53,531 nt of DNA. Origin: a virus. Taxonomy: Duplodnaviria > Caudoviricetes. Both the position numbers and the translations under genes were made by a program. The DNA lies in the IMG/VR virus record IMGVR_UViG_3300025141_000131, positions 1 through 53,531 of that record. One strand, 5' to 3'. Positions 2,087-53,531 of this stretch are shown here, piece after piece (positions within the stretch are counted from its first letter, which is position 1; every line of letters begins with the position of its first letter). Below the pieces are notes generated by a model. That model searched no databases. It was not told where the DNA came from and was given only the letters and a program-made list of their open reading frames with translations.

Positions 2087-2102
2087 AATTTATTTAATTT
2101 AG

Positions 2103-2176
2103 GTGCGGGAGTAGGATTCGAACCTACGACCTCGAGCTTATGAGGCTCGCGAGCTGGCCAACTGCTCTATCCCGCA
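2103..2176 (-). tRNA. tRNA-Met (CAT), initiator-like body
   Basis: TGCGGGA/TCCCGCA acceptor, GAGC/GCTC D stem, CGAGC-CTCATAA-GCTCG anticodon arm, GTAGG-TTCGAAT-CCTAC T arm; CCA not encoded. Confidence 0.92.
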
Positions 2177-2182
2177 ATATTT

Positions 2183-2261
2183 TACCGGCTGTCACTACGA
2201 CTGGCTTTGTACAACTGATACCTCAAGGAAGCCAAGGCGTCGGTTTACTGTTAGGCCGGTA
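2183..2261 (-). ncRNA. unassigned structured RNA (79-nt irregular hairpin)
   Basis: Nested helices TACCGGC/GCCGGTA, CGAC/GTCG, TGGCTT/AAGCCA; GC-rich island between two tRNA-like genes; strand inferred from context. Confidence 0.6.
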
Positions 2262-2266
2262 TTTAG

Positions 2267-2365
2267 TGGACGTGGCAGGAATCGAACCTGCGTTAGTAAG
2301 ATAGCTACTGGATGTCTCATAGAGATCACAGCTTGCCAACATCTTACTCTAACCATTTCACGCCC
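2267..2365 (-). ncRNA. mini-tmRNA: tRNA-like domain only, Ala identity, no mRNA-like domain
   Basis: GGGCGTG/CACGTCC-A acceptor with G3-U70 and A73; unpaired D-loop AAATGGTTAG; helix AGTAAGAT/ATCTTACT; T arm GCAGG-TTCGATT-CCTGC. Confidence 0.75.
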
Positions 2366-2369
2366 ATAT

Positions 2370-2516
2370 GAGACAGTGTTTCGGAACAGGTAGTTTCTAG
2401 AATTATCATTTATACCGTTTTCTGTTTTGACGCACCACGATCGGTTGCTCTAAGGAATACTCCCGCTGAGTCTTACACCCGGTAATCGCCTAACGTGACC
2501 TGTATGCCACTGTCTC
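2370..2516 (-). ncRNA. unassigned multibranched RNA (147 nt)
   Basis: Perfect 9-bp closing helix GAGACAGTG/CACTGTCTC, then ACAGGT/ACCTGT, TACCG/CGGTA and two inner hairpins. Confidence 0.65.
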
Positions 2517-2520
2517 TATT

Positions 2521-2568
2521 GTTGAATATTCCTGAGTTCATAACGAGCCCTCACCAGTTCAATTCAAC
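2521..2568 (-). ncRNA. short hairpin element at the head of the ncRNA array
   Basis: GTTGAAT/ATTCAAC closing helix and TGAG/CTCA inner helix. Confidence 0.4.
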
Positions 2569-2576
2569 TTTATTTT

Positions 2577-3437: not shown

Positions 3438-3440
3438 TTG

Positions 3441-3480
3441 TTTATTATATTATCCATTAATATTCGTATTTTGTTTGTAA
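3441..3480 (-). promoter_or_regulatory. early promoter-like motif
   Basis: TTACAAACAAAATAC-N9-TGGATAATATAATAAA. Confidence 0.75.
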
Positions 3481-3485
3481 TTTAG

Positions 3486-3570
3486 TAACTAGAAGAGGAA
3501 TCGAACCTCTTTACCCGTCAGTAGTCAGTGGGATAATCAGCATTAAGCCTTCTCCACGCCATACCTAGTT
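3486..3570 (-). ncRNA. D-armless tRNA-like RNA (85 nt)
   Basis: AACTAGG/TCTAGTT-A acceptor, T arm AGAGG-TTCGATT-CCTCT, central GTGG/CCAC helix, no canonical D or anticodon arm. Confidence 0.6.
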
Positions 3571-6148: not shown

Positions 6149-6168
6149 AATTTATTATTTAATATTAG

Positions 6169-6212
6169 TTAATATGAAGAGAATCGAACTCTTCCTCGTT
6201 CCAAAATATTAA
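6169..6212 (-). ncRNA. 44-nt tRNA minihelix-like element
   Basis: TTAATAT/ATATTAA stem stacked on GAAGAG-TTCGATT-CTCTTC T arm, joined by the 11-nt linker TTTGGAACGAG. Confidence 0.55.
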
Positions 6213-6226
6213 TTTAGAGTAGTATG

Positions 6227-6457
6227 TTACTGTACTTCACACACTTCTCTCACTACAACAGGTACATTAGTTGAACTAGTATATGAGTTGTATTTTTTGA
6301 AACAATTAAGAGAATTTAATTTATCTTTCATAATTTCATACACTTCATCGTGATTATAAGATACTTTCTTACCACTTTTGAATTCAACATTTATAGTTGT
6401 GTTTTTACCGATTAGTGATTTTCTTATCACAAATCTTTTTAAATTTAAGTTTGACAT
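6227..6457 (-). CDS. hypothetical early protein (KRFVIRKSLIG)
   Basis: 76-aa ORF downstream of a promoter motif. Confidence 0.7.
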   Translation of the reverse strand: MSNLNLKRFVIRKSLIGKNTTINVEFKSGKKVSYNHDEVYEIMKDKLNSLNCFKKYNSYTSSTNVPVVVREVCEVQ

Positions 6458-28047: not shown

Positions 28048-30435
28048 ATGAATATATACACTAACACCAACAGCGTTTTTCCTAGTCAAGTAGTAAGCGA
28101 TGCTGAAAAAGCTACTTGGGAATACGGCGAGCAAGTTGCTCAAGCAATAGAACAAGAGTGGTTTCGTAACGGAAGGACTAATGGTAATAGATATTTAACT
28201 AGTTGGAATAATTTTCACCAACTAAGATTGTATGCTAGAGGCGAACAATCTATACAAAAATACAAAGATGAATTAGCTATTAATGGTGATTTATCATACC
28301 TTAATTTAGACTGGAAACCTGTTCCTATCTTATCTAAATTTGTAGATATTGTAGTTAATGGTGTATCTAATAAAACTTATGATATAAAAGCTTATGCTCA
28401 AGATCCTGATTCTATAAAGAAAAGAACAGAATATGCTTCTAAAATTTATGAAGATATGCTTTCTCTTCCTTATTTAGAATTAATAAAAAATACTTTAGGA
28501 ATAGATTTATATCAAAGTCCTGATTTAGATATAATTCCAGAAACTAAAGAAGAATTAGAATTACACATGCAATTATCTTATAAACAATCTATAGAAATTG
28601 CAGAAGAAGAAGCTATATCTAGTGTTTTAGCTCAAAACAAATACGATCTTATTAGAAGAAGATTAAACATGGACTTAACAGTCTGTGGTATTGCTGCAGC
28701 TAAAACTAATTTTAATACAGCTGAAGGAGTTACTGTTGATTATGTAGATCCAGCTTATTTAGTATATTCTTATACAGAAGATCCAAATTTTGAAGATATA
28801 TATTACGTAGGAGAATTAAAAGCTATAACTATACCAGAACTTAAAAAAGAATTTCCTAATATATCTAAAGAAGAACTAGAAAGAATACAAGCAATGCCTG
28901 GTAATAGATCTTATATTACAGGTTGGGGAGATTATGATGAAAATACAGTACAGGTTTTATATTTTGATTATAAAACTTATCATAATCAAGTATTTAAAAT
29001 AAAACAAACTGATCAAGGTTTAATTAAAGCTATAGAAAAACCAGATACTTTTAACCCACCAGAAAATGATAATTTTGAAAGAGTATCAAGATCTATAGAA
29101 GTTTTATATAGTGGAGCTAAAGTATTAGGAACTAACACAATGTTGAAGTGGGATTTAGCAGAAAATATGTCTAGACCTATGGCTGATACTACTAAGGTTA
29201 GAATGAATTATAGTATTTGTGCTCCTAGAATATATAAAGGTAGAATTGAATCTGTAGTAAGTAAATGTATAGGTTTTGCTGATATGATTCAATTAACTCA
29301 TTTAAAATTACAACAAGTAATTTCAAGATTAGTTCCAGATGGTGTATATTTAGATATGGATGGTTTGGCAGAAGTTGATTTAGGAAATGGTACTAATTAT
29401 AATCCAGCAGAAGCATTGAATATGTATTTCCAAACTGGTAGTATAGTTGGTAGATCACTTACTCAAGAAGGAGATATGAATCCAGGAAAAGTTCCTATTC
29501 AAGAACTTAATTCTTCAGCAGGTGGAGCGAAAATACAAAGTTTAATTCAAACATATCAATATTATTTACAAATGATAAGAGATGTGACCGGATTAAATGA
29601 AGCTAGAGATGGAAGTACTCCAGATAGAAATACACTAGTAGGATTACAAAAGATAGCAGCTAATGCTTCTAATGTAGCAACTAGACATATCGTACAATCT
29701 AGTTTATATTTAACATTACAATTAGCTGAAAATATAGGGTTAAAAATAGCTGATGCTTTAGAGTTTCCATTAACGAAGGCATCGTTACAAAATTCTATAT
29801 CTACTTTTAATATTAAAACATTAGAAGAAATTGTTAATCTTAATCTGCATGATTTTGGTATATTCTTAGAATTAGAACCAGATGAAGAAGAACAAGCTAA
29901 ATTAGAAGAGAACATTCAAGTAGCTTTACAGGCTCAAGGTATTGATTTAGAAGATGCTATTGATTTAAGACAAATCAAAAATCTTAAATTAGCTAATCAA
30001 ATGCTTAAAATTAAACGTAAAGCTAAAGGTGAACAAGACCAAGCTAATCAACAAGCTAATATTCAAGCACAAGCTCAAGCGCAAGCAGAGACTGCAGAAA
30101 AAACAGCTATGGCTGAAGTACAAAAACAACAAGCTATTAGTGGTGCAAATGTAGAATATGAAAAAGCTAAGAGTGAGTTTGAGAAAGATCGTATGCAATT
30201 ACAAGCACAATTAGATCAACAAAAATTAATGGCAGAGCATCAAAATGCTATGGAATTAAAAGGAATGGAACGTCAAGCTACACAAGAAAAAGAAGCTTTG
30301 ATAGAAGATAGAAAAGATAAAAGAATAAAAATGGAAGGTACTCAACAGAGTAAAATGATCCAACAAAGACAAACCGATAGCCCTGCTATTGATTTTGAAG
30401 CAGAAAGCGGTTTGAATATGGCCCCTTTCATGTAA
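28048..30435 (+). CDS. portal protein
   Basis: Follows terL; 795 aa; IRDVTGLNEARDG motif; Gln-rich C-terminal coiled-coil barrel. Confidence 0.82.
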   Translation: MNIYTNTNSVFPSQVVSDAEKATWEYGEQVAQAIEQEWFRNGRTNGNRYLTSWNNFHQLRLYARGEQSIQKYKDELAINGDLSYLNLDWKPVPILSKFVDIVVNGVSNKTYDIKAYAQDPDSIKKRTEYASKIYEDMLSLPYLELIKNTLGIDLYQSPDLDIIPETKEELELHMQLSYKQSIEIAEEEAISSVLAQNKYDLIRRRLNMDLTVCGIAAAKTNFNTAEGVTVDYVDPAYLVYSYTEDPNFEDIYYVGELKAITIPELKKEFPNISKEELERIQAMPGNRSYITGWGDYDENTVQVLYFDYKTYHNQVFKIKQTDQGLIKAIEKPDTFNPPENDNFERVSRSIEVLYSGAKVLGTNTMLKWDLAENMSRPMADTTKVRMNYSICAPRIYKGRIESVVSKCIGFADMIQLTHLKLQQVISRLVPDGVYLDMDGLAEVDLGNGTNYNPAEALNMYFQTGSIVGRSLTQEGDMNPGKVPIQELNSSAGGAKIQSLIQTYQYYLQMIRDVTGLNEARDGSTPDRNTLVGLQKIAANASNVATRHIVQSSLYLTLQLAENIGLKIADALEFPLTKASLQNSISTFNIKTLEEIVNLNLHDFGIFLELEPDEEEQAKLEENIQVALQAQGIDLEDAIDLRQIKNLKLANQMLKIKRKAKGEQDQANQQANIQAQAQAQAETAEKTAMAEVQKQQAISGANVEYEKAKSEFEKDRMQLQAQLDQQKLMAEHQNAMELKGMERQATQEKEALIEDRKDKRIKMEGTQQSKMIQQRQTDSPAIDFEAESGLNMAPFM

Positions 30436-45346: not shown

Positions 45347-48300
45347 ATGAACGGTAATAAATTAACAGTTGAACAGTATGAAAATAAACTGAGAACTGAT
45401 ATTAATACCCGTGGATATAGCGAAGAATCAATTCAAAAATATATCGCTGAATACAAGGAGAAATTAAGAGTAGAGAAAGAAGCAGAACAACTAGCTGTTG
45501 AGGAACAAGAGGAGAATCAAGGAGGCGAGGTAGTAGAAGTTCCACCTGGTCATGATATAGATCCTAATAGTAAAAAGCGTATTCTGAAAGAAGAGGCGAT
45601 AAAAATGGGTATAGACTATGAAGAAAACACTCAAGGAGGGTTTGTAACGGTAAAAGAAACAGATATAATAGACTATATTGCTCCTAAAGCACACAAAAAG
45701 CTAGATGAGTTTAAAAGTAAGAAATTTGAAGAGTCTTTAAACAAAGAAGATATTAAAAACAACGCTGCTAATATTTTATTTAAAACAGATATACTTGACA
45801 CTTATGATGCTAAAGCTGAAATGTCAAAAGAAGATCGAAATAAATATAGTGCAGCTTCACAAAACTACAAAAATGCTTTCAAAGCTGAAAATTTAAAGAA
45901 ATTTAATGAGTTTAAAGGCAAAAAATCAGGCTTTGGTGCTTCAAAAGAACTTGCAGATGCAGGGATTTGTAGTCCCTATGGTGCTAATTTAACTGATTGT
46001 TTAAAGAAAAAACTTGATAAAGATTCTGGATATTTAAAATTAATACGAGATCATACATTAAAATATAAAAGTGAAGATGAATATGATGACTATCTTAAAG
46101 GACAGTTAGGTGAGAATTATGATAGGTATACAGAGTGGAAAGCGGGGAGTGAAGTAGAATTTTCTGATAAAGAATTATTAGAAGGAAAAAAGAAAGCTTT
46201 TCAAGATAAACTTTATTTAGAGTTTAGAGAAATGGATGATGTTTTTGGGGGAGAAAAATATGACGAACAACTTAAAAAAGCTATATATTTAGCACTAAAA
46301 CCTGAACTTGATTCTCAAGCAGAACAACAGGAAGGGTTAAATGCAATGGGTGAGGTTATAAAAGAGGATAAAAAAGCAATAGAAGATAAATTTAAAGCTC
46401 TACAAAAACTAGAAAAACCCTATGTTGATAAATTAACTGGTTTTACAAATAAACTTAAAGAAATTGATTTAAAAGAAGAAGATTATTTTAATTTATCTAA
46501 AGCTGAATATGATAAAAAACTTGAAGACTATAATAGTATAGTCACGGAATATGAAACGGTATATGGCGACTATGAAGAACTAGATTTTAAAGGAAAATAT
46601 GATGTTCTTATAAAAGAACAAGAGAACTTTAAAGGTTTAATAGAAAAATTTAATAGTGATATAGAAAAGTTTGCTAAACCTGGTATAGATAAAGCTAACA
46701 TGATAGCTAAAGCAGCTGGCATGGACTACTCCTTGACAGGAAGAGCGGCTATGGCATTAGAAGACTTTTTTATAGGAGGGTTTACTAATTTTGCTCGTTT
46801 AACTCAAGGAGTGGGATTGAAGGTAATAAAAAATTTAACAAATAACCCTGCTAGAAAAGCAGAAATTGATCAGAGTATAGCTGTAATAGAACAAAATTTA
46901 GCTAATTACAATAGAAGATTAGCTCACAAAAGAGAGATTACAATTCCTCCTTCTTTAACTTTAGATAATGTAGGGGATGGAGCTAGTTTCTTAGATTATA
47001 TGGGAGAAGCTTTAGCTGATAATAGTCCATCTATATTAACTACATTTATACCAGCAGCTGCAGCTATTTCTGGAGGAATAAGATTAGGTGCTGCGGTTGG
47101 TTTTGGTGCAAGACGAGCAGCTTTAATGGCTAATAAGACTTATGGTTTGTATGCAATGAGAGCTTCACAAGGAATATTCTTTGCTGGGGAATCTGGAGGA
47201 AAATATGGAGAACTTTTATCTACAGAGTATGATATGCGAGATAGAATAAAAGATATAAATACAGCGCTAGCTAGTGAGGGTTTAACTCCAGAACAGAGAG
47301 ATCAATTAATATTAGAAAAAGAAGAGCTTGATAATGATTTAACAAATAATTTTAGTTTTGCTCAAAAAGCTTGGTCATCTTACGGATATGGTGGAGTAGC
47401 AACAGTAGCAGAAACAATGGGATCGTTAAAATTAGTTCAAGGAGTTAATGCAACTGCTAAAGGATTAGGTAAAACAATAGCTAAAAAGCATTTATATACA
47501 AACTCTGCCAACTTTGCGGGTGTTTTAGTTAAAGGAACAATTAAAGGATTAAGACCTGCTATTACAAAAGCTATGCCTAGTGAAGTATTTGAAGAAGCCT
47601 TTACTCAAATAGGTCATAACGCTATAGATATTGTAGCATTAAATGAAGATAAAAGTTTATTAGAAGGATTAAATGCGGATTTCTTTGTTAAAACCGCTAT
47701 AACATCTTTTGCTATTATGGGTCCAACTACCATGGCAAATACAAAAAATATTCTTACCAATGAATTTAAAACTAGAGATGATATTATAACTAATAAAAAA
47801 GATGTAAATGAATTAATAGTTATTCAATCTAAATTAGATAAACTAAAAGGTCCTGAATTAAAAGAAGCTTTAAAAAGAAGAAAACAATTAGTACAAAAAT
47901 TAGCATTCCACGATGCTATGACGCTTCAAAAATTAAATCACTTAAGTCCTGATCAAATAAGAGAAGCTGCTGACTTAGCTAGACAAAAAAGAGTTTTAAA
48001 CAGTAGAATGAGATCTTTAAGTGCTACTGGTGATACACAAAGTCAAGACTTTAAAGATGCTGAAGCTGGTATAAGAGATCAATTTGCTGCTATATCTGAA
48101 AAACAAAACGAGCTTTTAGGTGCTAAAGATAGAAGTACTCTAGCTAAAATGACTGATTTAAATACTAAATACGGATTAACAACTAATTTAGATTTACAAT
48201 ATACTTTAGGTTTAAATGATTTCGCAATGGACGCTGCAATGACTTTATCAGATAAAAACAAAAAGTTTACTGTAATAACTGAAGCTGCTTTTGGTGATCC

Positions 48301-51300
48301 TAATGCGATGAGAGGAGAATTACAAGCTCAAGGATATTCAGCGGCAGAAATTGATGCTGCAGTAGAAAGTTTTAGTGGTGATGCACCAGCTAATGGGTTG
48401 TATACTATTAATGGAGATATTATAATTAATGAAGGAGCAATGAATCAAAGAATGCATGGAGCTTCTGGAATAGCTGAAGCAAATTACGCAGCTGTTGCTC
48501 CATTAGAAGAATTGTTTCACGCAACTGTTGCGGCTAAAGGTTTAAAAATAGATGGTAAATTAAAAGGTGATGCTGCTGCTGCGACACAAGAGTTAATGGA
48601 TTTAGTTGATGCTAAAAAAGAAACTGGGGCGATTAATGATGAAGATTATACAGCGTTAAAAGAAAGAATAGACATGTATAAACAAAACGGTGAATACAAC
48701 TATGAAGAAATGTTAGCGCAAATAAACAATGCAATGGCTATAGGTATTCTTAATGAAAGTGATTTTCAATCTATTCCATCTTTAAAATCTTATCTTAATA
48801 GTGCTATAAATAATGTATTAGGAGATTCTGCATGGATGTTAAAAGTAGAAACCGCAGCGGATGTCTCTACTTTTATGAAAAACTATCGTGCTAATACTAT
48901 TGATGGTGGTACAAGACTTAGTGCTGGAGGAGATGAAGCCGCTCAAACAGAACAAACACAGGAATCTAAAGGTAAAGAAATTGCATTACCTGTAACTGAA
49001 AGCGATAGAATAAATGCTATACCAAATATTAGAGAGAAAGCAAAAGAAGAGTTAGATGCTATTGATCAAAGGTTAGATGTATCTCAAATTACTAAAGATA
49101 CAACTTTTGAAGAATTTAGAACTCAACAAGTTCAAGATAACCAAGTTGATCGTAGTGTGTTTGATGAAAATAGAACTCAAGCAGAACGAGCTTTTAATAA
49201 TTATCAAGATACAATAGTAGAAGAAGCATCGATACAAGAATCAAAAGGCAAACCTCTTACAATGGAAGATCAAATAGATCACGTTTTTTCAAAGAACTCG
49301 GGATTAGGTAACTTTGATAGATTATTAGAAGAAGAATTTGCTAAGAGTCCTCACACTAGACACTTGGCAGCATATGCTAAAAAGCACGGACTGGATACGG
49401 ACGCGTGGTTTTGGAAGGTTGATTGGGGCGCAGGTGGAAGAGATTTAGAGGTTCCAGGATATAATGCTCTTGTAACAAGAAGGAAGAAAGTAGATGACCT
49501 TTGGATGCATGACATTGAGTGGTTAAGAACTGAACTTAAAAAAGCAAAAGGTGAAAATAAAGAAAATCTTGAACTTGCAATAGAAGAAAAGTTTAAAAGA
49601 CTAGGTCCAGAAATAATTCAAAGTGCTGGAATTGATATTTATACAGGCAAAGATATTGGTACAGCACCAACACAGGTTCAAGAATCAAAAGGTAAAGCTA
49701 TAGAGACAAAAGATTTACCAGAAAGTACTCAGACCTACATGGAGTTAGATAATTCTATATTACAACAAGCTTTAGTATCTGAAATTCAAAATAAAGGAGA
49801 AAATAGATTTCCTATTGCTCAAGCTATTGTAGAGAAAAATTGGCCTTTAATTAGTAAATCTTTAAATATAAATTCGCAGCAAGAAATGGAAGCTGCTAAA
49901 GAGGTTGTTATTGATCAAATGCTAGGTCAATTTGAAGGATCAGGTCAAGGTAAATATGGATCTAGAAATACTAGTTTGTTAGGTGGTTTTTCATTAGACC
50001 CAGCGGGTCCTCCTGCACAAGTTAGTACTTATTTAGCAGAAACTGTTAGAACTAGAAAACCTGAAATCGACGCTGCTATAGCAGATAGAGTGGGTAAACA
50101 AGGTACAGATTTAAAAGAAGCTATTACTACTACTGTAGAAACCACGGAAACAACAGAAAAGGCGAAAGTAGTTAAAAAACCTAGTGAAACCACGGGGTTA
50201 GATAAAAAAACTGAAGCTACAATAACCGAGGCAATAACTGATTCATATAAAGGAAAAGAAGTTACGTTAGCAGAGACAAGAAATATACCTAAAAAAGTAG
50301 CAGGTGTTTATGCTGATATGTTTGGAATAAATCCTCAAACTATAATAGATAAGAAAAGAAATTTCCAAAAGAAAGATGCTGAAGGTCTTACAAAGGCGAA
50401 ACAATTTTTACTTAAAAATGCTAAAGATGATTTTGCTCGTTTACCAAAAACTGTAGACGCTTCAGGTAAAGGTACTTTTATACCTAAGAACGTAAGAGAC
50501 GCTTTATATACTGATGGTGAGTTAACTGGTACGTTAAAAGATTACTTAGATCTAATTAGAACTAAACCAACCAAGCCTATATATAGAGATAGAACTGCAC
50601 AAACTATTAGAGGTTTGTTAGGATTACATATTAGAAATCGTATATTAGAAACTACAACTTCAAAACCTAAAAGAATTAAATCTGGGGCAATGTTTAGTAA
50701 AGGTAAAAAAATTAAGCCTCTTACTAAGGACCAAGTTGAAATTTATAATAAATTATTAGAAACTGCAGGTAAGCCCCAAGCTAGAGAAGCAGCTGGTATT
50801 GATAAGGTAACTATTACTAACGAAAACAGACCGGATATAATAAATAAACTAGACCAACTAGTTGGAGATGATGAAGTAGCAATTAATCCTCTTGTTCTTG
50901 ACTCTATGGGGTCGGCAGGTGCAGTAAGAGCTACTTTAGGTAAAAGAAATAAAGAAGGAAAAGAACCTGCTGCAACAAAAAAACTACGTAAATGGCTTGA
51001 AGATAATAATCGGAAAAAAGACCTAAAAAACCCTGATGTTTATTGGTACCAAACAATTGATGCTGCTGGAAATATTGGTTATGTAAAAGGTACTCCATCT
51101 AAGAAAACTCCTGGCGCATGGAGTGCACCAAGCTTGCCAAGGTTAAAAAGGTTAAAAAATAAAGGACTTAGCTTAGTTCCAGGGAGGAATAAAATATTTT
51201 GGGGTAAAGAGGATCTAAATTTTAAAACACTCAAGAAAAAAGCTGTAAAAACTTACAAGAAAAAACACGGTAAGAAACCTCCAAAACCAAAAAAAGTTAA

Positions 51301-53531
51301 CGTTAATAGAAAAAACCCTAACAAGGTTTTTAGTAAAGCTAATCAAGAGATAGGTAAAGCTAATGTTGCGATAATGGATGACATTATAGATGATTTACAA
51401 TCTGGAGTGTCAAAAGGTTTAATATCAACTGACTTAGCAGCACAAATAATAGAAAATGGTTATCAAGCAACTGATGGTTTTATAAAAGTAGCAGCTCCAT
51501 TTACTTATAGATCGGATAAATTTGAACATGGAAAAGGTGATAAATATAGTAAAGGTGTTAAATATAGGGAAGAGCATAATCCTCCAGCTTCAACTATAGG
51601 TGGAATGTTAATGTATGCTGTAGCAACTGGGACTTATGGTAACATAAAACCTTTTGTTCATAAAAATTATACTCAAACTTTATTATCTAAAAAAGATGAT
51701 GAAAAGGTAGATAGATTACATGCAAGTGTTATGCCGGACTATACTACAATTGAAATGTTTTGGGCAGCTGATTTATTAGATAGTAAATATGATGGAGTTA
51801 GATATGCAGCGTCAGATTTAGATTTAAACAGTATCAAAAATATGATTAAGAAGGGGAAGCCTTCTATGGCTGAAGAATTAACTATTCCTATTGAAAATAA
51901 AAGTGATACAAATTTAGAATCTATACGTTATCAGAATGAATTAATAGTAGAAAGTAAAGGTAAACCTATAGCTTTAGATAGGAAAAAATTAAAAGTAAGT
52001 TTACCTACTCAGAAAGCTAAATCAGTACAAGCTAAAACTAATGCTAAAAATTTTGATGTCATATTAAATGACGACCAAAGATCTTTTGAACAAAAAGAAA
52101 TAATGATGCATTCATTAGGAGCTAAGATACAAGCTAAAAAAATAAACAAACCCACTAAAGGTATTAGTGTTTTTGATTTTGATGATACATTAGCTATGAC
52201 AAAAGAAAGAGTTATAGTATTGTTAGATGGTGTAGAACAATATACAATATCTGCTTCAGAGTTTGGTAAACATGCTGGTAGAATGATGTCTGGGAATAAC
52301 CTTAAAAATTCTAGAACTTGGGTGGGTAATACGGTAAGTTTTGATTTCAAAAACTTTGAAAATGTAGATATGAAAAGTAAAGAAGGACCATTAGCGGATT
52401 TAGCAAGAAAACGTCAGGGTAAGTTTGGTAGTGGTGATATATATATATTAACAGCGCGTCCTCAAATTGCTGCACCAGCTATTAAACAATTTTTAGATAC
52501 TATAGGTATAAATATACCTTTAGAAAATATAACTGGTTTAGAAGACGGATCTCCACAAGCTAAAGCTGATTGGGTGTTAAATAAAGCAATGGAGGGTTAT
52601 AATGATTTCTATTTTGCTGATGATTCTAAAATGAATGTAGAAGCGGTTGATCAAATTTTAAAGCGAGTTGATGTAAAATCTAAAGTACAGCAAGTAATGA
52701 TGAGTAAAGGTAAAAAACTTGATGCAGATTTTAATACTCAAATAGAAGAAGTTACTGGGAAAGAAGCTTATAAAAAATATTCTCCAGTTAGAGGAAAATT
52801 AGAAGGTAAAAGAAAAGACGCAGGTTTATTAAAAAGATTTATAAGACAATTTACTATAACTCCTTCAGCAGAAGACTTTATGGGATTAATGTATGATCTT
52901 ATGGGAAAAGGCGAACAAGGTAATAAACACATGGCTTTTATTAAAGATAATTTAATTGATCCTTATAATAAAGCTGAACAAGAAATATTATCTGCTAAAG
53001 TTGCAGTTGCAAATGACTTTGCAGCTCTTAAAAAGAACTTTCCTACTCTAAGAAGTACTCTGAAAGGTAATCCTTTGATGCAAGAAATAGGCGTAGGACC
53101 ATATACTAGATCTCAAGCAGTGAGAGTTTATAATTGGGCTAAACAAGGATTAGAAATTCCTGGCATGTCTAAAGCAGATGTAAAAAGATTAGTAAAAGCT
53201 GTAGAAGCAGACGCTGAATTAAATGTTTTTGCTGATGAAATAGGATTAATAAATAAAGGTAAAAAATATCCAGCTCCAGGTAAAAACTGGTTAGCCGGTG
53301 ATATTACTACTGATTTAATGCAAAATATAGATCAAGTTCTTAGAAAAGAATTAATGACTGAGTTTAATGAAAATGTAGATATTATATTTTCTAAAAAAAA
53401 TAAGAATAAACTTAGAGCATTATATGGAAATAAATGGGTTGAAGCTTTAGAAGATTCTTTAAGAAGAATGAAAGTAGGAAGTAATAGACCTGTTTATGTT
53501 GGTGGTGGGGCTAAAATAGTAAATGAAATGC
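45347..53531 (+). CDS. giant multidomain internal virion/polyvalent protein, >2700 aa, truncated by the window end
   Basis: Starts MNGNKLTVEQY; same frame checked at about ten internal points and at the end (...GGGAKIVNEM); absent from the track because no stop is reached; zincin-like and HAD motifs. Confidence 0.88.
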   Translation, partial: MNGNKLTVEQYENKLRTDINTRGYSEESIQKYIAEYKEKLRVEKEAEQLAVEEQEENQGGEVVEVPPGHDIDPNSKKRILKEEAIKMGIDYEENTQGGFVTVKETDIIDYIAPKAHKKLDEFKSKKFEESLNKEDIKNNAANILFKTDILDTYDAKAEMSKEDRNKYSAASQNYKNAFKAENLKKFNEFKGKKSGFGASKELADAGICSPYGANLTDCLKKKLDKDSGYLKLIRDHTLKYKSEDEYDDYLKGQLGENYDRYTEWKAGSEVEFSDKELLEGKKKAFQDKLYLEFREMDDVFGGEKYDEQLKKAIYLALKPELDSQAEQQEGLNAMGEVIKEDKKAIEDKFKALQKLEKPYVDKLTGFTNKLKEIDLKEEDYFNLSKAEYDKKLEDYNSIVTEYETVYGDYEELDFKGKYDVLIKEQENFKGLIEKFNSDIEKFAKPGIDKANMIAKAAGMDYSLTGRAAMALEDFFIGGFTNFARLTQGVGLKVIKNLTNNPARKAEIDQSIAVIEQNLANYNRRLAHKREITIPPSLTLDNVGDGASFLDYMGEALADNSPSILTTFIPAAAAISGGIRLGAAVGFGARRAALMANKTYGLYAMRASQGIFFAGESGGKYGELLSTEYDMRDRIKDINTALASEGLTPEQRDQLILEKEELDNDLTNNFSFAQKAWSSYGYGGVATVAETMGSLKLVQGVNATAKGLGKTIAKKHLYTNSANFAGVLVKGTIKGLRPAITKAMPSEVFEEAFTQIGHNAIDIVALNEDKSLLEGLNADFFVKTAITSFAIMGPTTMANTKNILTNEFKTRDDIITNKKDVNELIVIQSKLDKLKGPELKEALKRRKQLVQKLAFHDAMTLQKLNHLSPDQIREAADLARQKRVLNSRMRSLSATGDTQSQDFKDAEAGIRDQFAAISEKQNELLGAKDRSTLAKMTDLNTKYGLTTNLDLQYTLGLNDFAMDAAMTLSDKNKKFTVITEAAFGDPNAMRGELQAQGYSAAEIDAAVESFSGDAPANGLYTINGDIIINEGAMNQRMHGASGIAEANYAAVAPLEELFHATVAAKGLKIDGKLKGDAAAATQELMDLVDAKKETGAINDEDYTALKERIDMYKQNGEYNYEEMLAQINNAMAIGILNESDFQSIPSLKSYLNSAINNVLGDSAWMLKVETAADVSTFMKNYRANTIDGGTRLSAGGDEAAQTEQTQESKGKEIALPVTESDRINAIPNIREKAKEELDAIDQRLDVSQITKDTTFEEFRTQQVQDNQVDRSVFDENRTQAERAFNNYQDTIVEEASIQESKGKPLTMEDQIDHVFSKNSGLGNFDRLLEEEFAKSPHTRHLAAYAKKHGLDTDAWFWKVDWGAGGRDLEVPGYNALVTRRKKVDDLWMHDIEWLRTELKKAKGENKENLELAIEEKFKRLGPEIIQSAGIDIYTGKDIGTAPTQVQESKGKAIETKDLPESTQTYMELDNSILQQALVSEIQNKGENRFPIAQAIVEKNWPLISKSLNINSQQEMEAAKEVVIDQMLGQFEGSGQGKYGSRNTSLLGGFSLDPAGPPAQVSTYLAETVRTRKPEIDAAIADRVGKQGTDLKEAITTTVETTETTEKAKVVKKPSETTGLDKKTEATITEAITDSYKGKEVTLAETRNIPKKVAGVYADMFGINPQTIIDKKRNFQKKDAEGLTKAKQFLLKNAKDDFARLPKTVDASGKGTFIPKNVRDALYTDGELTGTLKDYLDLIRTKPTKPIYRDRTAQTIRGLLGLHIRNRILETTTSKPKRIKSGAMFSKGKKIKPLTKDQVEIYNKLLETAGKPQAREAAGIDKVTITNENRPDIINKLDQLVGDDEVAINPLVLDSMGSAGAVRATLGKRNKEGKEPAATKKLRKWLEDNNRKKDLKNPDVYWYQTIDAAGNIGYVKGTPSKKTPGAWSAPSLPRLKRLKNKGLSLVPGRNKIFWGKEDLNFKTLKKKAVKTYKKKHGKKPPKPKKVNVNRKNPNKVFSKANQEIGKANVAIMDDIIDDLQSGVSKGLISTDLAAQIIENGYQATDGFIKVAAPFTYRSDKFEHGKGDKYSKGVKYREEHNPPASTIGGMLMYAVATGTYGNIKPFVHKNYTQTLLSKKDDEKVDRLHASVMPDYTTIEMFWAADLLDSKYDGVRYAASDLDLNSIKNMIKKGKPSMAEELTIPIENKSDTNLESIRYQNELIVESKGKPIALDRKKLKVSLPTQKAKSVQAKTNAKNFDVILNDDQRSFEQKEIMMHSLGAKIQAKKINKPTKGISVFDFDDTLAMTKERVIVLLDGVEQYTISASEFGKHAGRMMSGNNLKNSRTWVGNTVSFDFKNFENVDMKSKEGPLADLARKRQGKFGSGDIYILTARPQIAAPAIKQFLDTIGINIPLENITGLEDGSPQAKADWVLNKAMEGYNDFYFADDSKMNVEAVDQILKRVDVKSKVQQVMMSKGKKLDADFNTQIEEVTGKEAYKKYSPVRGKLEGKRKDAGLLKRFIRQFTITPSAEDFMGLMYDLMGKGEQGNKHMAFIKDNLIDPYNKAEQEILSAKVAVANDFAALKKNFPTLRSTLKGNPLMQEIGVGPYTRSQAVRVYNWAKQGLEIPGMSKADVKRLVKAVEADAELNVFADEIGLINKGKKYPAPGKNWLAGDITTDLMQNIDQVLRKELMTEFNENVDIIFSKKNKNKLRALYGNKWVEALEDSLRRMKVGSNRPVYVGGGAKIVNEM

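Follow-up and report, generated by a model that had tools for sequence, protein, structure and literature searches.

Can a phage carry a transfer-messenger RNA (tmRNA) cut down to its tRNA-like domain (TLD), and what would such an RNA do in the infected cell? The question is raised by a 99-nt element on the minus strand of a virus (Duplodnaviria; Caudoviricetes) in IMG/VR, record IMGVR_UViG_3300025141_000131, of which positions 1 to 53,531 were analyzed (the window, 53,531 nt). A preliminary description, made from the letters of the window, had read this element as a phage mini-tmRNA of alanine identity without a tag open reading frame (ORF). Here, we report comparisons with RNA models, viral contigs, and published systems, from which we infer that the element is a coding-sequence-less tmRNA homolog keeping just the TLD, and a real, selected RNA gene. 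The function toward which we lean, with modest confidence, is that of a tag-less competitor of the host tmRNA, which would use host AlaRS and SmpB and either suppress tagging or replace it by the transfer of a single alanine.

A tRNA-like domain without a tag frame

The minus-strand sequence proved to be as first written down, an exact match from 2365 to 2267 followed by CTA. It pairs as a 7-bp acceptor (G1-C72, G2-C71, G3·U70) with no D stem, and in its minimum-free-energy fold the acceptor stem, the T arm, and a long helix all form, at −35.9 kcal/mol (z = −3.79), a stability that none of 200 shuffled sequences attained. The D-loop analogue AAATGGTTAG has the same 12-nt span as ACCGGTTTTGAC of the tmRNA of a Bacteroidetes metagenome-assembled genome (MAG).

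The Rfam tmRNA model RF00023 was aligned to 2264-2365(−) over model positions 1 to 374, with both ends aligned and 282 internal positions reduced to 24 nt (37.7 bits; E = 1.6e-13 with 701 bases searched, 2.9e-15 with the whole record). It was the best match of its clan at E-value thresholds, where lower-scoring tRNA-clan models were displaced and mt-tmRNA was not best; at gathering thresholds, Rfam returned from this region a tRNA-Met alone (66 bits). ARAGORN called only the same tRNA-Met in the window (2102-2176, minus strand), with no tRNA, tmRNA, or tag at the element, and gave no tmRNA or tag in any of 60 family loci. RF00023 matched 20 of 20 homologous loci tested (31.5 to 45.2 bits, all below threshold), in which no other Rfam family was found at E <= 0.1, inserts included. 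TLD-only genes escape both standard detectors that we tried (ARAGORN and Rfam at its gathering threshold), and every copy given to them was missed.

The element lies below the RF00023 gathering score and has neither a tag frame with resume and stop codons nor the pseudoknots PK1-PK4, for which reasons it was filed under TLD-only tmRNA only. What it does possess is a TLD (7-bp acceptor with G3·U70, A73, a T arm of the GGUUCGAnUCC type, and a stemless D-loop), complete and joined to a single closing helix within ~60 to 150 nt, with no tag frame, as in the TLD-only RNA of mycobacteriophage DS6A. The full tmRNA of Cellulophaga phage phi38:1 served as the positive control of the tag-frame search. 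A coding reading was also considered, since the opening GG of the element often contributes to an ATG, and was rejected, as the frame stops after 7 codons in the window and is not conserved.

An unusual or intron-containing tRNA-Ala would share G3·U70, A73, and the T arm with the element. We consider this identity extremely improbable, because a D stem is lacking, no conserved anticodon stem-loop occurs in any of 57 distinct inserts of the family, ARAGORN made no call at the element or in the 60 loci, and Rfam clan competition kept tmRNA over tRNA. The better fit to an ordinary or interrupted tRNA, which the preliminary description had named as a way in which it could be wrong, was thus not found.

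The 3' 22-mer of the element has exact matches in 64 other IMG/VR viral contigs (most of 50 to 70 kb), and a matching 5' acceptor strand lies upstream in all 64, which is far beyond chance. These elements are 68 to 149 nt long and have their 5' 17 nt and 3' 31 nt in common; the family as a whole numbers at least 70 copies in marine podophage contigs of ~60 kb. An alignment of 75 distinct copies (A1) was made, and a covariance model (R1) was built from the marine family only. All 7 acceptor and all 5 T-arm pairs were standard in 100% of A1 cells, double-sided changes were found in 6 of these 12 pairs (3 in the acceptor, 3 in the T arm) and in 8 of 8 basal pairs of the long helix, and all whole-structure measures beat 500 of 500 shuffles and all slid controls. 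The pair G3·U70 was kept in 74 of the 75 aligned copies and A73 in every one, an invariance partly by design, because the patterns used for collection fixed part of the TLD; the 5' half was free in the 22-mer search, and position 70 was free in a degenerate scan (below). With the RF00023 match, compensatory changes in the acceptor, T, and long helices, and both alanine-identity positions conserved in homologs, the preliminary description was borne out on the nature of the RNA.

A scan in which only the D-loop motif and the T loop were fixed gave 16 loci, among which L076 was the one addition to the 15 found before. Its acceptor (GGGTGCG/CGCATCC) and T stem (GCTGG/CCAGC) show compensatory changes at 4:69, 6:67, and 51:63, and G3·U70, A73, and CTA are retained. 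In five carrier contigs tested, TerL was 73 to 82% identical to that of the window, despite an identical 3' 22-mer of the element. One contig (L059) carries two subtypes in tandem with a spacer of exactly CTA, and another (L048) has two copies ~230 nt apart. A third subtype was observed in L242 and L247 (GGGGGTG...CACCTCC, a GGTTTTGAC D-loop, and a TTCGATT T loop in a CAG/CTG stem), directly downstream of a structured module, M2, which is described below.

No mini-tmRNA was found by R1 search of five cultured relatives (MW202828, elemoA, phi13:2, phi38:1, and Gundel_1), its matches there being limited to tRNAs, to other folds of tRNA-like shape, and, in phi38:1, to the 3' end of the full tmRNA. 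Against public phage records, the region and the first 20 kb (megablast, blastn) matched only at the tRNA-Met, and the matches of a 37-nt query from the 3' half were confined to partial T-arm alignments with tRNAs. Among 185,579 species genomes, the exact 22-mer occurred 6 times, each time as the phage element on a MAG contig, so no host ssrA shares it. Four element variants lie on four short contigs of a single "Aliivibrio" MAG (L067 to L070), which looks like the result of viral contigs binned into a bacterial genome; the other two matches (L066, L071) are on Bacteroidetes MAGs.

These matches bear on the reading of the element as a decaying remnant, that is, an ssrA fragment from imprecise excision, an attP site, or a drifting phage tmRNA that has lost its middle. 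Related Flavobacteriaceae phages do carry full tmRNAs (phi38:1, 87.6 bits, with tag frame), and ssrA fragments in prophages have been described (PMC9004378). We nonetheless regard a remnant as very improbable, for both halves are present and perfectly paired, with compensatory changes and near-invariance over at least 70 copies, and the 3' end is unlike the tmRNAs found in MAGs with such contigs. An attP site or ssrA 3' fragment in particular was disfavored by the paired 5' half, by the lack of any integrase family among the 60 ORFs of the window, and by all 6 genome matches being the phage element.

For elements outside the family, we used a degenerate scan that fixed the T loop, C66, C71-C72-A73, and CTA and left free position 70 and the rest of both stems. 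It returned at least 114 loci in viral contigs. Among the matches listed, ARAGORN classed 41 as tRNAs and 9 as full tmRNAs, 31 lacked a 5' strand within 200 nt (many resemble the 3' termini of long tmRNAs), and 33 were uncalled tRNA-like elements. Of these at least 33, 19 reached an R1 score of 40 bits or more, and G3·U70 was present in 19 of 19, a count to be read with the slight reward that R1 gives to G·U at 3:70. Eight of the 19 were already in R1; the other 11 (among the matches listed) are independent, 63 to 81 nt long, on contigs of quite different sizes and with 9 other acceptor sequences, and most of them bear the textbook tmRNA signature GGTTTCGAC ... GGAC. The preliminary description had singled out loss of G3·U70 in homologs as telling against it; the pair was kept in all 11 of these elements, as in the marine copies. 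Judged by these sequences, candidate TLD-only RNAs of alanine identity are recurrent in viral contigs, and the wobble pair survives where its neighbors change.

Tag-less tmRNAs had been thought by the preliminary description to be mainly protist mitochondrial. Coding-sequence-less forms are indeed reported from jakobid and oomycete mitochondria, with ~65-bp forms in plastids (PMC11915505), and a phage precedent had been missed. DS6A is listed as having a "TLD only" tmRNA by Hudson, Lau, and Williams in 2014 (PMC4131195), and a 2025 tmRNA database paper repeats the account, DS6A being the sole phage that it names (PMC11915505). We located the DS6A element at 28478-28560 (RF00023, 43.2 bits, subthreshold over the full span; R1, 43.8 bits). 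Like the window element, it is phage encoded; within ~80 nt, it combines an acceptor with G3·U70, the discriminator A73, a D-loop that lacks a stem, a single capped helix, and a T arm, and CTA is its trailer. DS6A is, however, a single Mycobacterium siphovirus with GC-rich sequence and one fixed short insert, whereas the marine podophage family numbers at least 70 copies in which the TLD is invariant and the inserts are modular and hypervariable, with subtypes in tandem (L059) and an element that is present in some related contigs and absent from others. The organellar forms likewise consist of the TLD alone, without a tag frame, and are presumed to work with SmpB; they descend from the ssrA gene of their compartment, which has no other tmRNA, whereas the element here is an accessory gene of a virus and would act alongside the intact tmRNA of the host. 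Beyond DS6A, the literature searched gave no account of marine or flavobacterial phages with a family of TLD-only tmRNAs, and supplementary catalogues may list such elements. Already in print are the TLD-only kind and the decoy hypothesis (for DS6A); no description was found of the marine family, the viral breadth, or the plan of invariant frame and variable insert.

The canonical tmRNA of phi38:1 has the same TLD features, T loop, G3·U70, and CTA trailer; it is 360 nt long, with a resume codon, a 22-residue tag frame, pseudoknot regions, and a score of 87.6 bits, all of which the window RNA lacks. One tmRNA is also reported for Calle, a relative of phi38:1 (PMC8776804). The mini form could be derived from a full phage tmRNA gene like that of phi38:1. 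Directly after the discriminator, CTA was observed in the mini-tmRNA (2264-2266), the tRNA-Met of the window (2100-2102), the DS6A TLD-only RNA, and the phi38:1 full tmRNA (L240; L239), and this common triplet may be a shared 3'-processing or CCA-repair signal.

Table 1. Features of the mini-tmRNA and of the RNA cluster around it (window coordinates)
Feature	Position	Strand	Basis
Predicted mature mini-tmRNA (TLD-only, 99 nt before CCA addition)	2267..2365	−	Sequence; RF00023, 37.7 bits over full model span; R1, 83.9 bits
Acceptor stem, 5' strand GGGCGTG (G1, G2, G3)	2359..2365	−	Pairs with 2268-2274
Stemless D-loop analogue AAATGGTTAG, 10 nt, GG and AG conserved	2349..2358	−	Near-invariant columns in A1
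5' strand AGTAAGAT of 8-bp helix in place of the anticodon arm (tmRNA helix 2 analogue)	2341..2348	−	Pairs with 2295-2302
38-nt apical hairpin, the hypervariable cargo position	2303..2340	−	33 nt identical to the L058 insert; unrelated to most other inserts
Helix 2 analogue, 3' strand ATCTTACT	2295..2302	−	Covariation in the 75-sequence alignment
Connector AAC, replacing GAC of the GGAC of tmRNA	2292..2294	−	At least 90% conserved in A1; compared with MAG tmRNAs
T arm GCAGG-TTCGATT-CCTGC	2275..2291	−	5/5 pairs 100% paired
Acceptor stem, 3' strand CACGTCC, U70 at 2270	2268..2274	−	Pairs with 2359-2365
Discriminator A73	2267	−	Invariant in 75/75 sequences
3' trailer CTA; CCA not encoded	2264..2266	−	CTA in 62/67 copies not selected on trailer
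Module M2, ~77-nt structured hairpin between mini-tmRNA and tRNA-Met	2184..2260	−	BLAST match to inserts of L042, L015, and L043
Noncoding leader with second free module (hairpin 2521-2568)	2366..2576	−	Core matches inserts of L037, L064, and L070
tRNA-Met(CAT), last gene of the RNA cluster, 90 nt downstream of the element	2102..2176	−	ARAGORN; Rfam tRNA, 66 bits

Candidate function and points against it

In published accounts, the TLD of tmRNA mimics tRNA-Ala without its anticodon arm, is charged by AlaRS, and is bound by SmpB where that arm would lie; on a nonstop ribosome, it is brought to the vacant A site by EF-Tu, and the tmRNA body hangs from the helix equivalent to the insert-bearing helix here (PMC8012679), so any appendage should be tolerated at that position. 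The mini-tmRNA has all the sequence features of the TLD and no template part; it could therefore enter the rescue pathway and yet not tag, having no resume codon, tag frame, or pseudoknots. SmpB (PF01668) was absent from the window and four near-complete relatives (the control was positive in 10 bacteria), so any SmpB must be that of the host, and the window and five further near-complete carrier contigs contained no full-length tmRNA.

As a tag-less competitor, the mini-tmRNA would be transcribed in the early-strand RNA cluster with the tRNA-Met, excised like a tRNA by host RNase P and 3'-end enzymes, and given CCA in exchange for its CUA trailer. Host AlaRS would then add alanine by way of G3·U70 and A73, and host SmpB would bind at the would-be site of the anticodon arm. 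The RNA would compete with host tmRNA for SmpB, EF-Tu, and stalled ribosomes, and SsrA tagging in the infected cell would be suppressed, or one alanine would be transferred instead, with release of the peptide through drop-off and peptidyl-tRNA hydrolase or through a factor of the ArfB type. Both forms of action put forward in the preliminary description, an SmpB/EF-Tu decoy and a rescue RNA that does not tag, are plausible. A charged, ribosome-reaching form seems somewhat preferable to pure SmpB titration, because the alanine identity wobble pair, free to drift to G-C or A-U, is kept near-absolutely. Titration alone can work, since a TLD-only-like molecule is reported to inhibit tmRNA strongly whether chargeable or not, perhaps via SmpB titration (PMC4131195).

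Several points weigh against a tag-less competitor. That charging was not needed for inhibition in the cited experiment weakens the argument from G3·U70, and one copy in L059 has A3-U70. The gene encodes CUA and not CCA, so charging would require a 3' repair that is assumed, and a tag-less TLD brings no stop codon, which leaves the release of the peptide unexplained. The RF00023 score of 37.7 bits is below the Rfam gathering score of 47, a shortfall found alongside the full-span match when the Rfam and ARAGORN comparisons proposed in the preliminary description were made. The D-loop and connector are unlike those of Bacteroidetes MAG tmRNAs (TTAGAG/TAAC in the window, TTAGAC/AAC in the family consensus, and TTTTGAC/GGAC in the MAGs), so recognition by SmpB is not guaranteed. 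Of 17 related contigs, picked by way of the neighboring RNA module, 11 carry the element and 6 do not; among 8 contigs at least 90% complete, 6 carry it and 2 are without; and L249, which shares leader, M2, and tRNA-Met with the window, lacks precisely the mini-tmRNA. The element is dispensable, an accessory gene. Lastly, decoy or rescue gives no reason for 40 unrelated insert groups, nested modules, and free-standing modules.

The accessory nature of the cassette, its presence/absence polymorphism, and the tandem subtypes of L059 are typical of counter-defense genes, and the TLD could be an anti-defense decoy that mimics host tmRNA or tRNA-Ala and so absorbs or misleads an immune effector, such as a system with SmpB-like domains or a tRNA or tmRNA nuclease. 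As context, CoCoNuT type IV restriction systems are described as having SmpB-like domains predicted to bind tmRNA (PMC11090510). We consider such a decoy unlikely, since no defense system or partner was identified and nothing in the analysis ties the element to immunity, and conservation of the identity pair suits AlaRS better than a nuclease.

The variable middle

The 65 copies with the same TLD hold 57 distinct inserts of up to ~110 nt, which fall into 40 groups without detectable mutual similarity. The shortest copies (68 to 70 nt) have just a short capped helix, and some modules are nested (the L009 core inside L031, that of L021 inside L029, and that of L037 inside L064). The preliminary description had taken the 38-nt hairpin of the window for part of a long helix in place of the anticodon arm; the helix was confirmed, and the hairpin turned out to be a hypervariable modular insert, which a pure decoy does not explain.

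Module M2 was found in 18 copies (L242 to L258 among them), 4 inside a TLD and 14 free-standing beside tRNA-like genes, and has no Rfam match. Its closing stem varies in concert (ACCGGC/GCCGGT, CCCGGC/GCCGGG, ACCACC/GGTGGT, and ATCAC/GTGAT), and the inner helix also covaries. Two palindromic loop sequences were observed in M2 (CTAACAG...GTGACAG), one being CCTTAAGG or CAAGCTTG and the other TTGTACAA. The noncoding leader of the window recurs in L249 (98% over 201 nt).

A scaffold role is a possibility that we hold at clearly lower confidence than competition with tmRNA: the TLD would be a tRNA-like chassis, providing RNase P and 3'-end maturation, CCA, and perhaps protection by SmpB or EF-Tu, and function would reside in an interchangeable module at the helix tip. 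It was kept under consideration because the tag-less competitor leaves the modular inserts unexplained. In its favor are the one TLD with 57 inserts in 40 unrelated groups (65 copies, 68 to 149 nt in all), the nested modules, the fact that M2, whether grafted into a TLD or free, keeps its internal sequence and its covarying stems, and the two such modules that lie outside the TLD in the window. On the other side, the minimal copies hold only a short capped helix, and a plain handle needs neither the alanine identity pair, kept in 74 of 75 copies, nor a tmRNA-type D-loop. No module matches Rfam at E <= 0.1 (20 loci), so Rfam assigns none of them a cargo function, and the modules could instead be insertions, selfish or neutral, that a permissive site has taken up. 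Held as tentatively is the broader proposal that marine flavobacterial phages share a universal, alanine-accepting chassis of the SmpB type, whose invariant TLD would confer processing, stability, and entry to the translation machinery and whose hypervariable cargo would be a host- or strain-specific effector (a decoy, a regulator, or a protein-binding RNA).

Two known arrangements resemble this plan. Engineered tRNA scaffolds have a cargo RNA at the site of the anticodon arm, and the tRNA frame around it provides processing and stability; those scaffolds are artificial, whereas the frame here is natural and tmRNA-like and the function of its cargo putative. Stable RNA species 1 of phage T4 (rnaC) also joins a tRNA-like 3' part (T arm and end pairing) to a large non-tRNA body and adjoins tRNAs, but the fold obtained has no tmRNA-type D-loop and no acceptor of the G3·U70 type, and R1 matched it weakly (19.9 bits); it is, by comparison of organization, an analogue and not a homolog. 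Other viral tRNA-like genes (L093, L096, L098, L124, L147, L157, and MW202828.1 532-630) were observed with a normal acceptor, D arm, and T arm and 40 to 80 nt of extra structured sequence at the anticodon-arm site; ARAGORN made no call there.

Gene neighborhood and significance

The record was judged 83% complete (G+C content, 33%) and encodes GroEL/GroES, terminase, portal, and DNA ligase. At the record end, a single open-ended ORF of >2,728 amino acids (45347-53530, plus strand) may encode a giant virion protein. Among deposited phages, an uncultured podovirus comes closest (62.7%), ahead of phages of Flavobacterium, Cellulophaga, Tenacibaculum, and Maribacter (30 to 45%), and on this kinship with flavobacterial phages the host is probably a marine member of the Flavobacteriaceae. 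The stretch was present in 18 marine DNA sequencing runs; two oligo-dT RNA runs held only 6% of its words. A search for relatives by way of the neighboring DNA ligase found none.

In most of the 64 copies, the ATG of the next ORF lies ~10 to 25 nt downstream; elsewhere, a repeated promoter-like intergenic motif follows. This ~45-nt motif (...TACAAAC.AAATACGAAT.....TGGATAATATAAT...) was observed at 3440-3485(−) of the window and at many loci, often 3' of tRNA-like genes and with several copies per genome in L207 and L209, and it may be a phage promoter. A promoter and terminator scan gave 12 promoter-like sites against 11.1 expected, none placed usefully.

Two further tRNA-like folds were observed in the window. 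One, at 3483-3570(−), has acceptor AACUAGG/UCUAGUU and T arm AGAGG-UUCGAUU-CCUCU followed by A-CUA, with C3-G70 and no G3·U70 (R1, 18 bits; no ARAGORN call and no Rfam match at E <= 1); L031 and L243 carry its 3' part as well. The other, at 6166-6255(−), is weak (R1, 20 bits), has UUCGAUU as its T loop, ends in ACUA, and overlaps the start of a doubtful 76-amino-acid ORF. No Rfam family matched either.

Intergenic folds with an ACTA end, together with the closeness of the next ATG in most copies and of the promoter-like motif in others, would suit a punctuation element, whose tRNA-like shape merely directs cleavage by RNase P and 3'-end enzymes between mRNAs and stabilizes their ends, as mitochondrial tRNAs do. 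We give this slightly less weight even than an anti-defense decoy, because G3·U70, A73, and a tmRNA-type D-loop would be unnecessary for it, and it does not account for a TLD that is invariant while its flanks differ.

Tag-less tmRNAs have been known from a few organelles and one mycobacteriophage. A large, strongly conserved family in abundant marine phages, together with unrelated TLD-only elements in many other viral contigs, all with the alanine identity pair except for the single A3-U70 copy, points to a recurrent viral strategy that targets ribosome rescue, and the family supplies many natural variants for direct tests. If the chassis proposal is true, the family would represent a new class of phage noncoding RNA, modular in build, and a tRNA-scaffold system of natural origin. 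Its invariant frame with swappable inserts suggests that phages exploit the single site of a tRNA-like body where a large appendage is naturally tolerated by tmRNA, which could be of value for RNA engineering and for the discovery of new phage RNA effectors.

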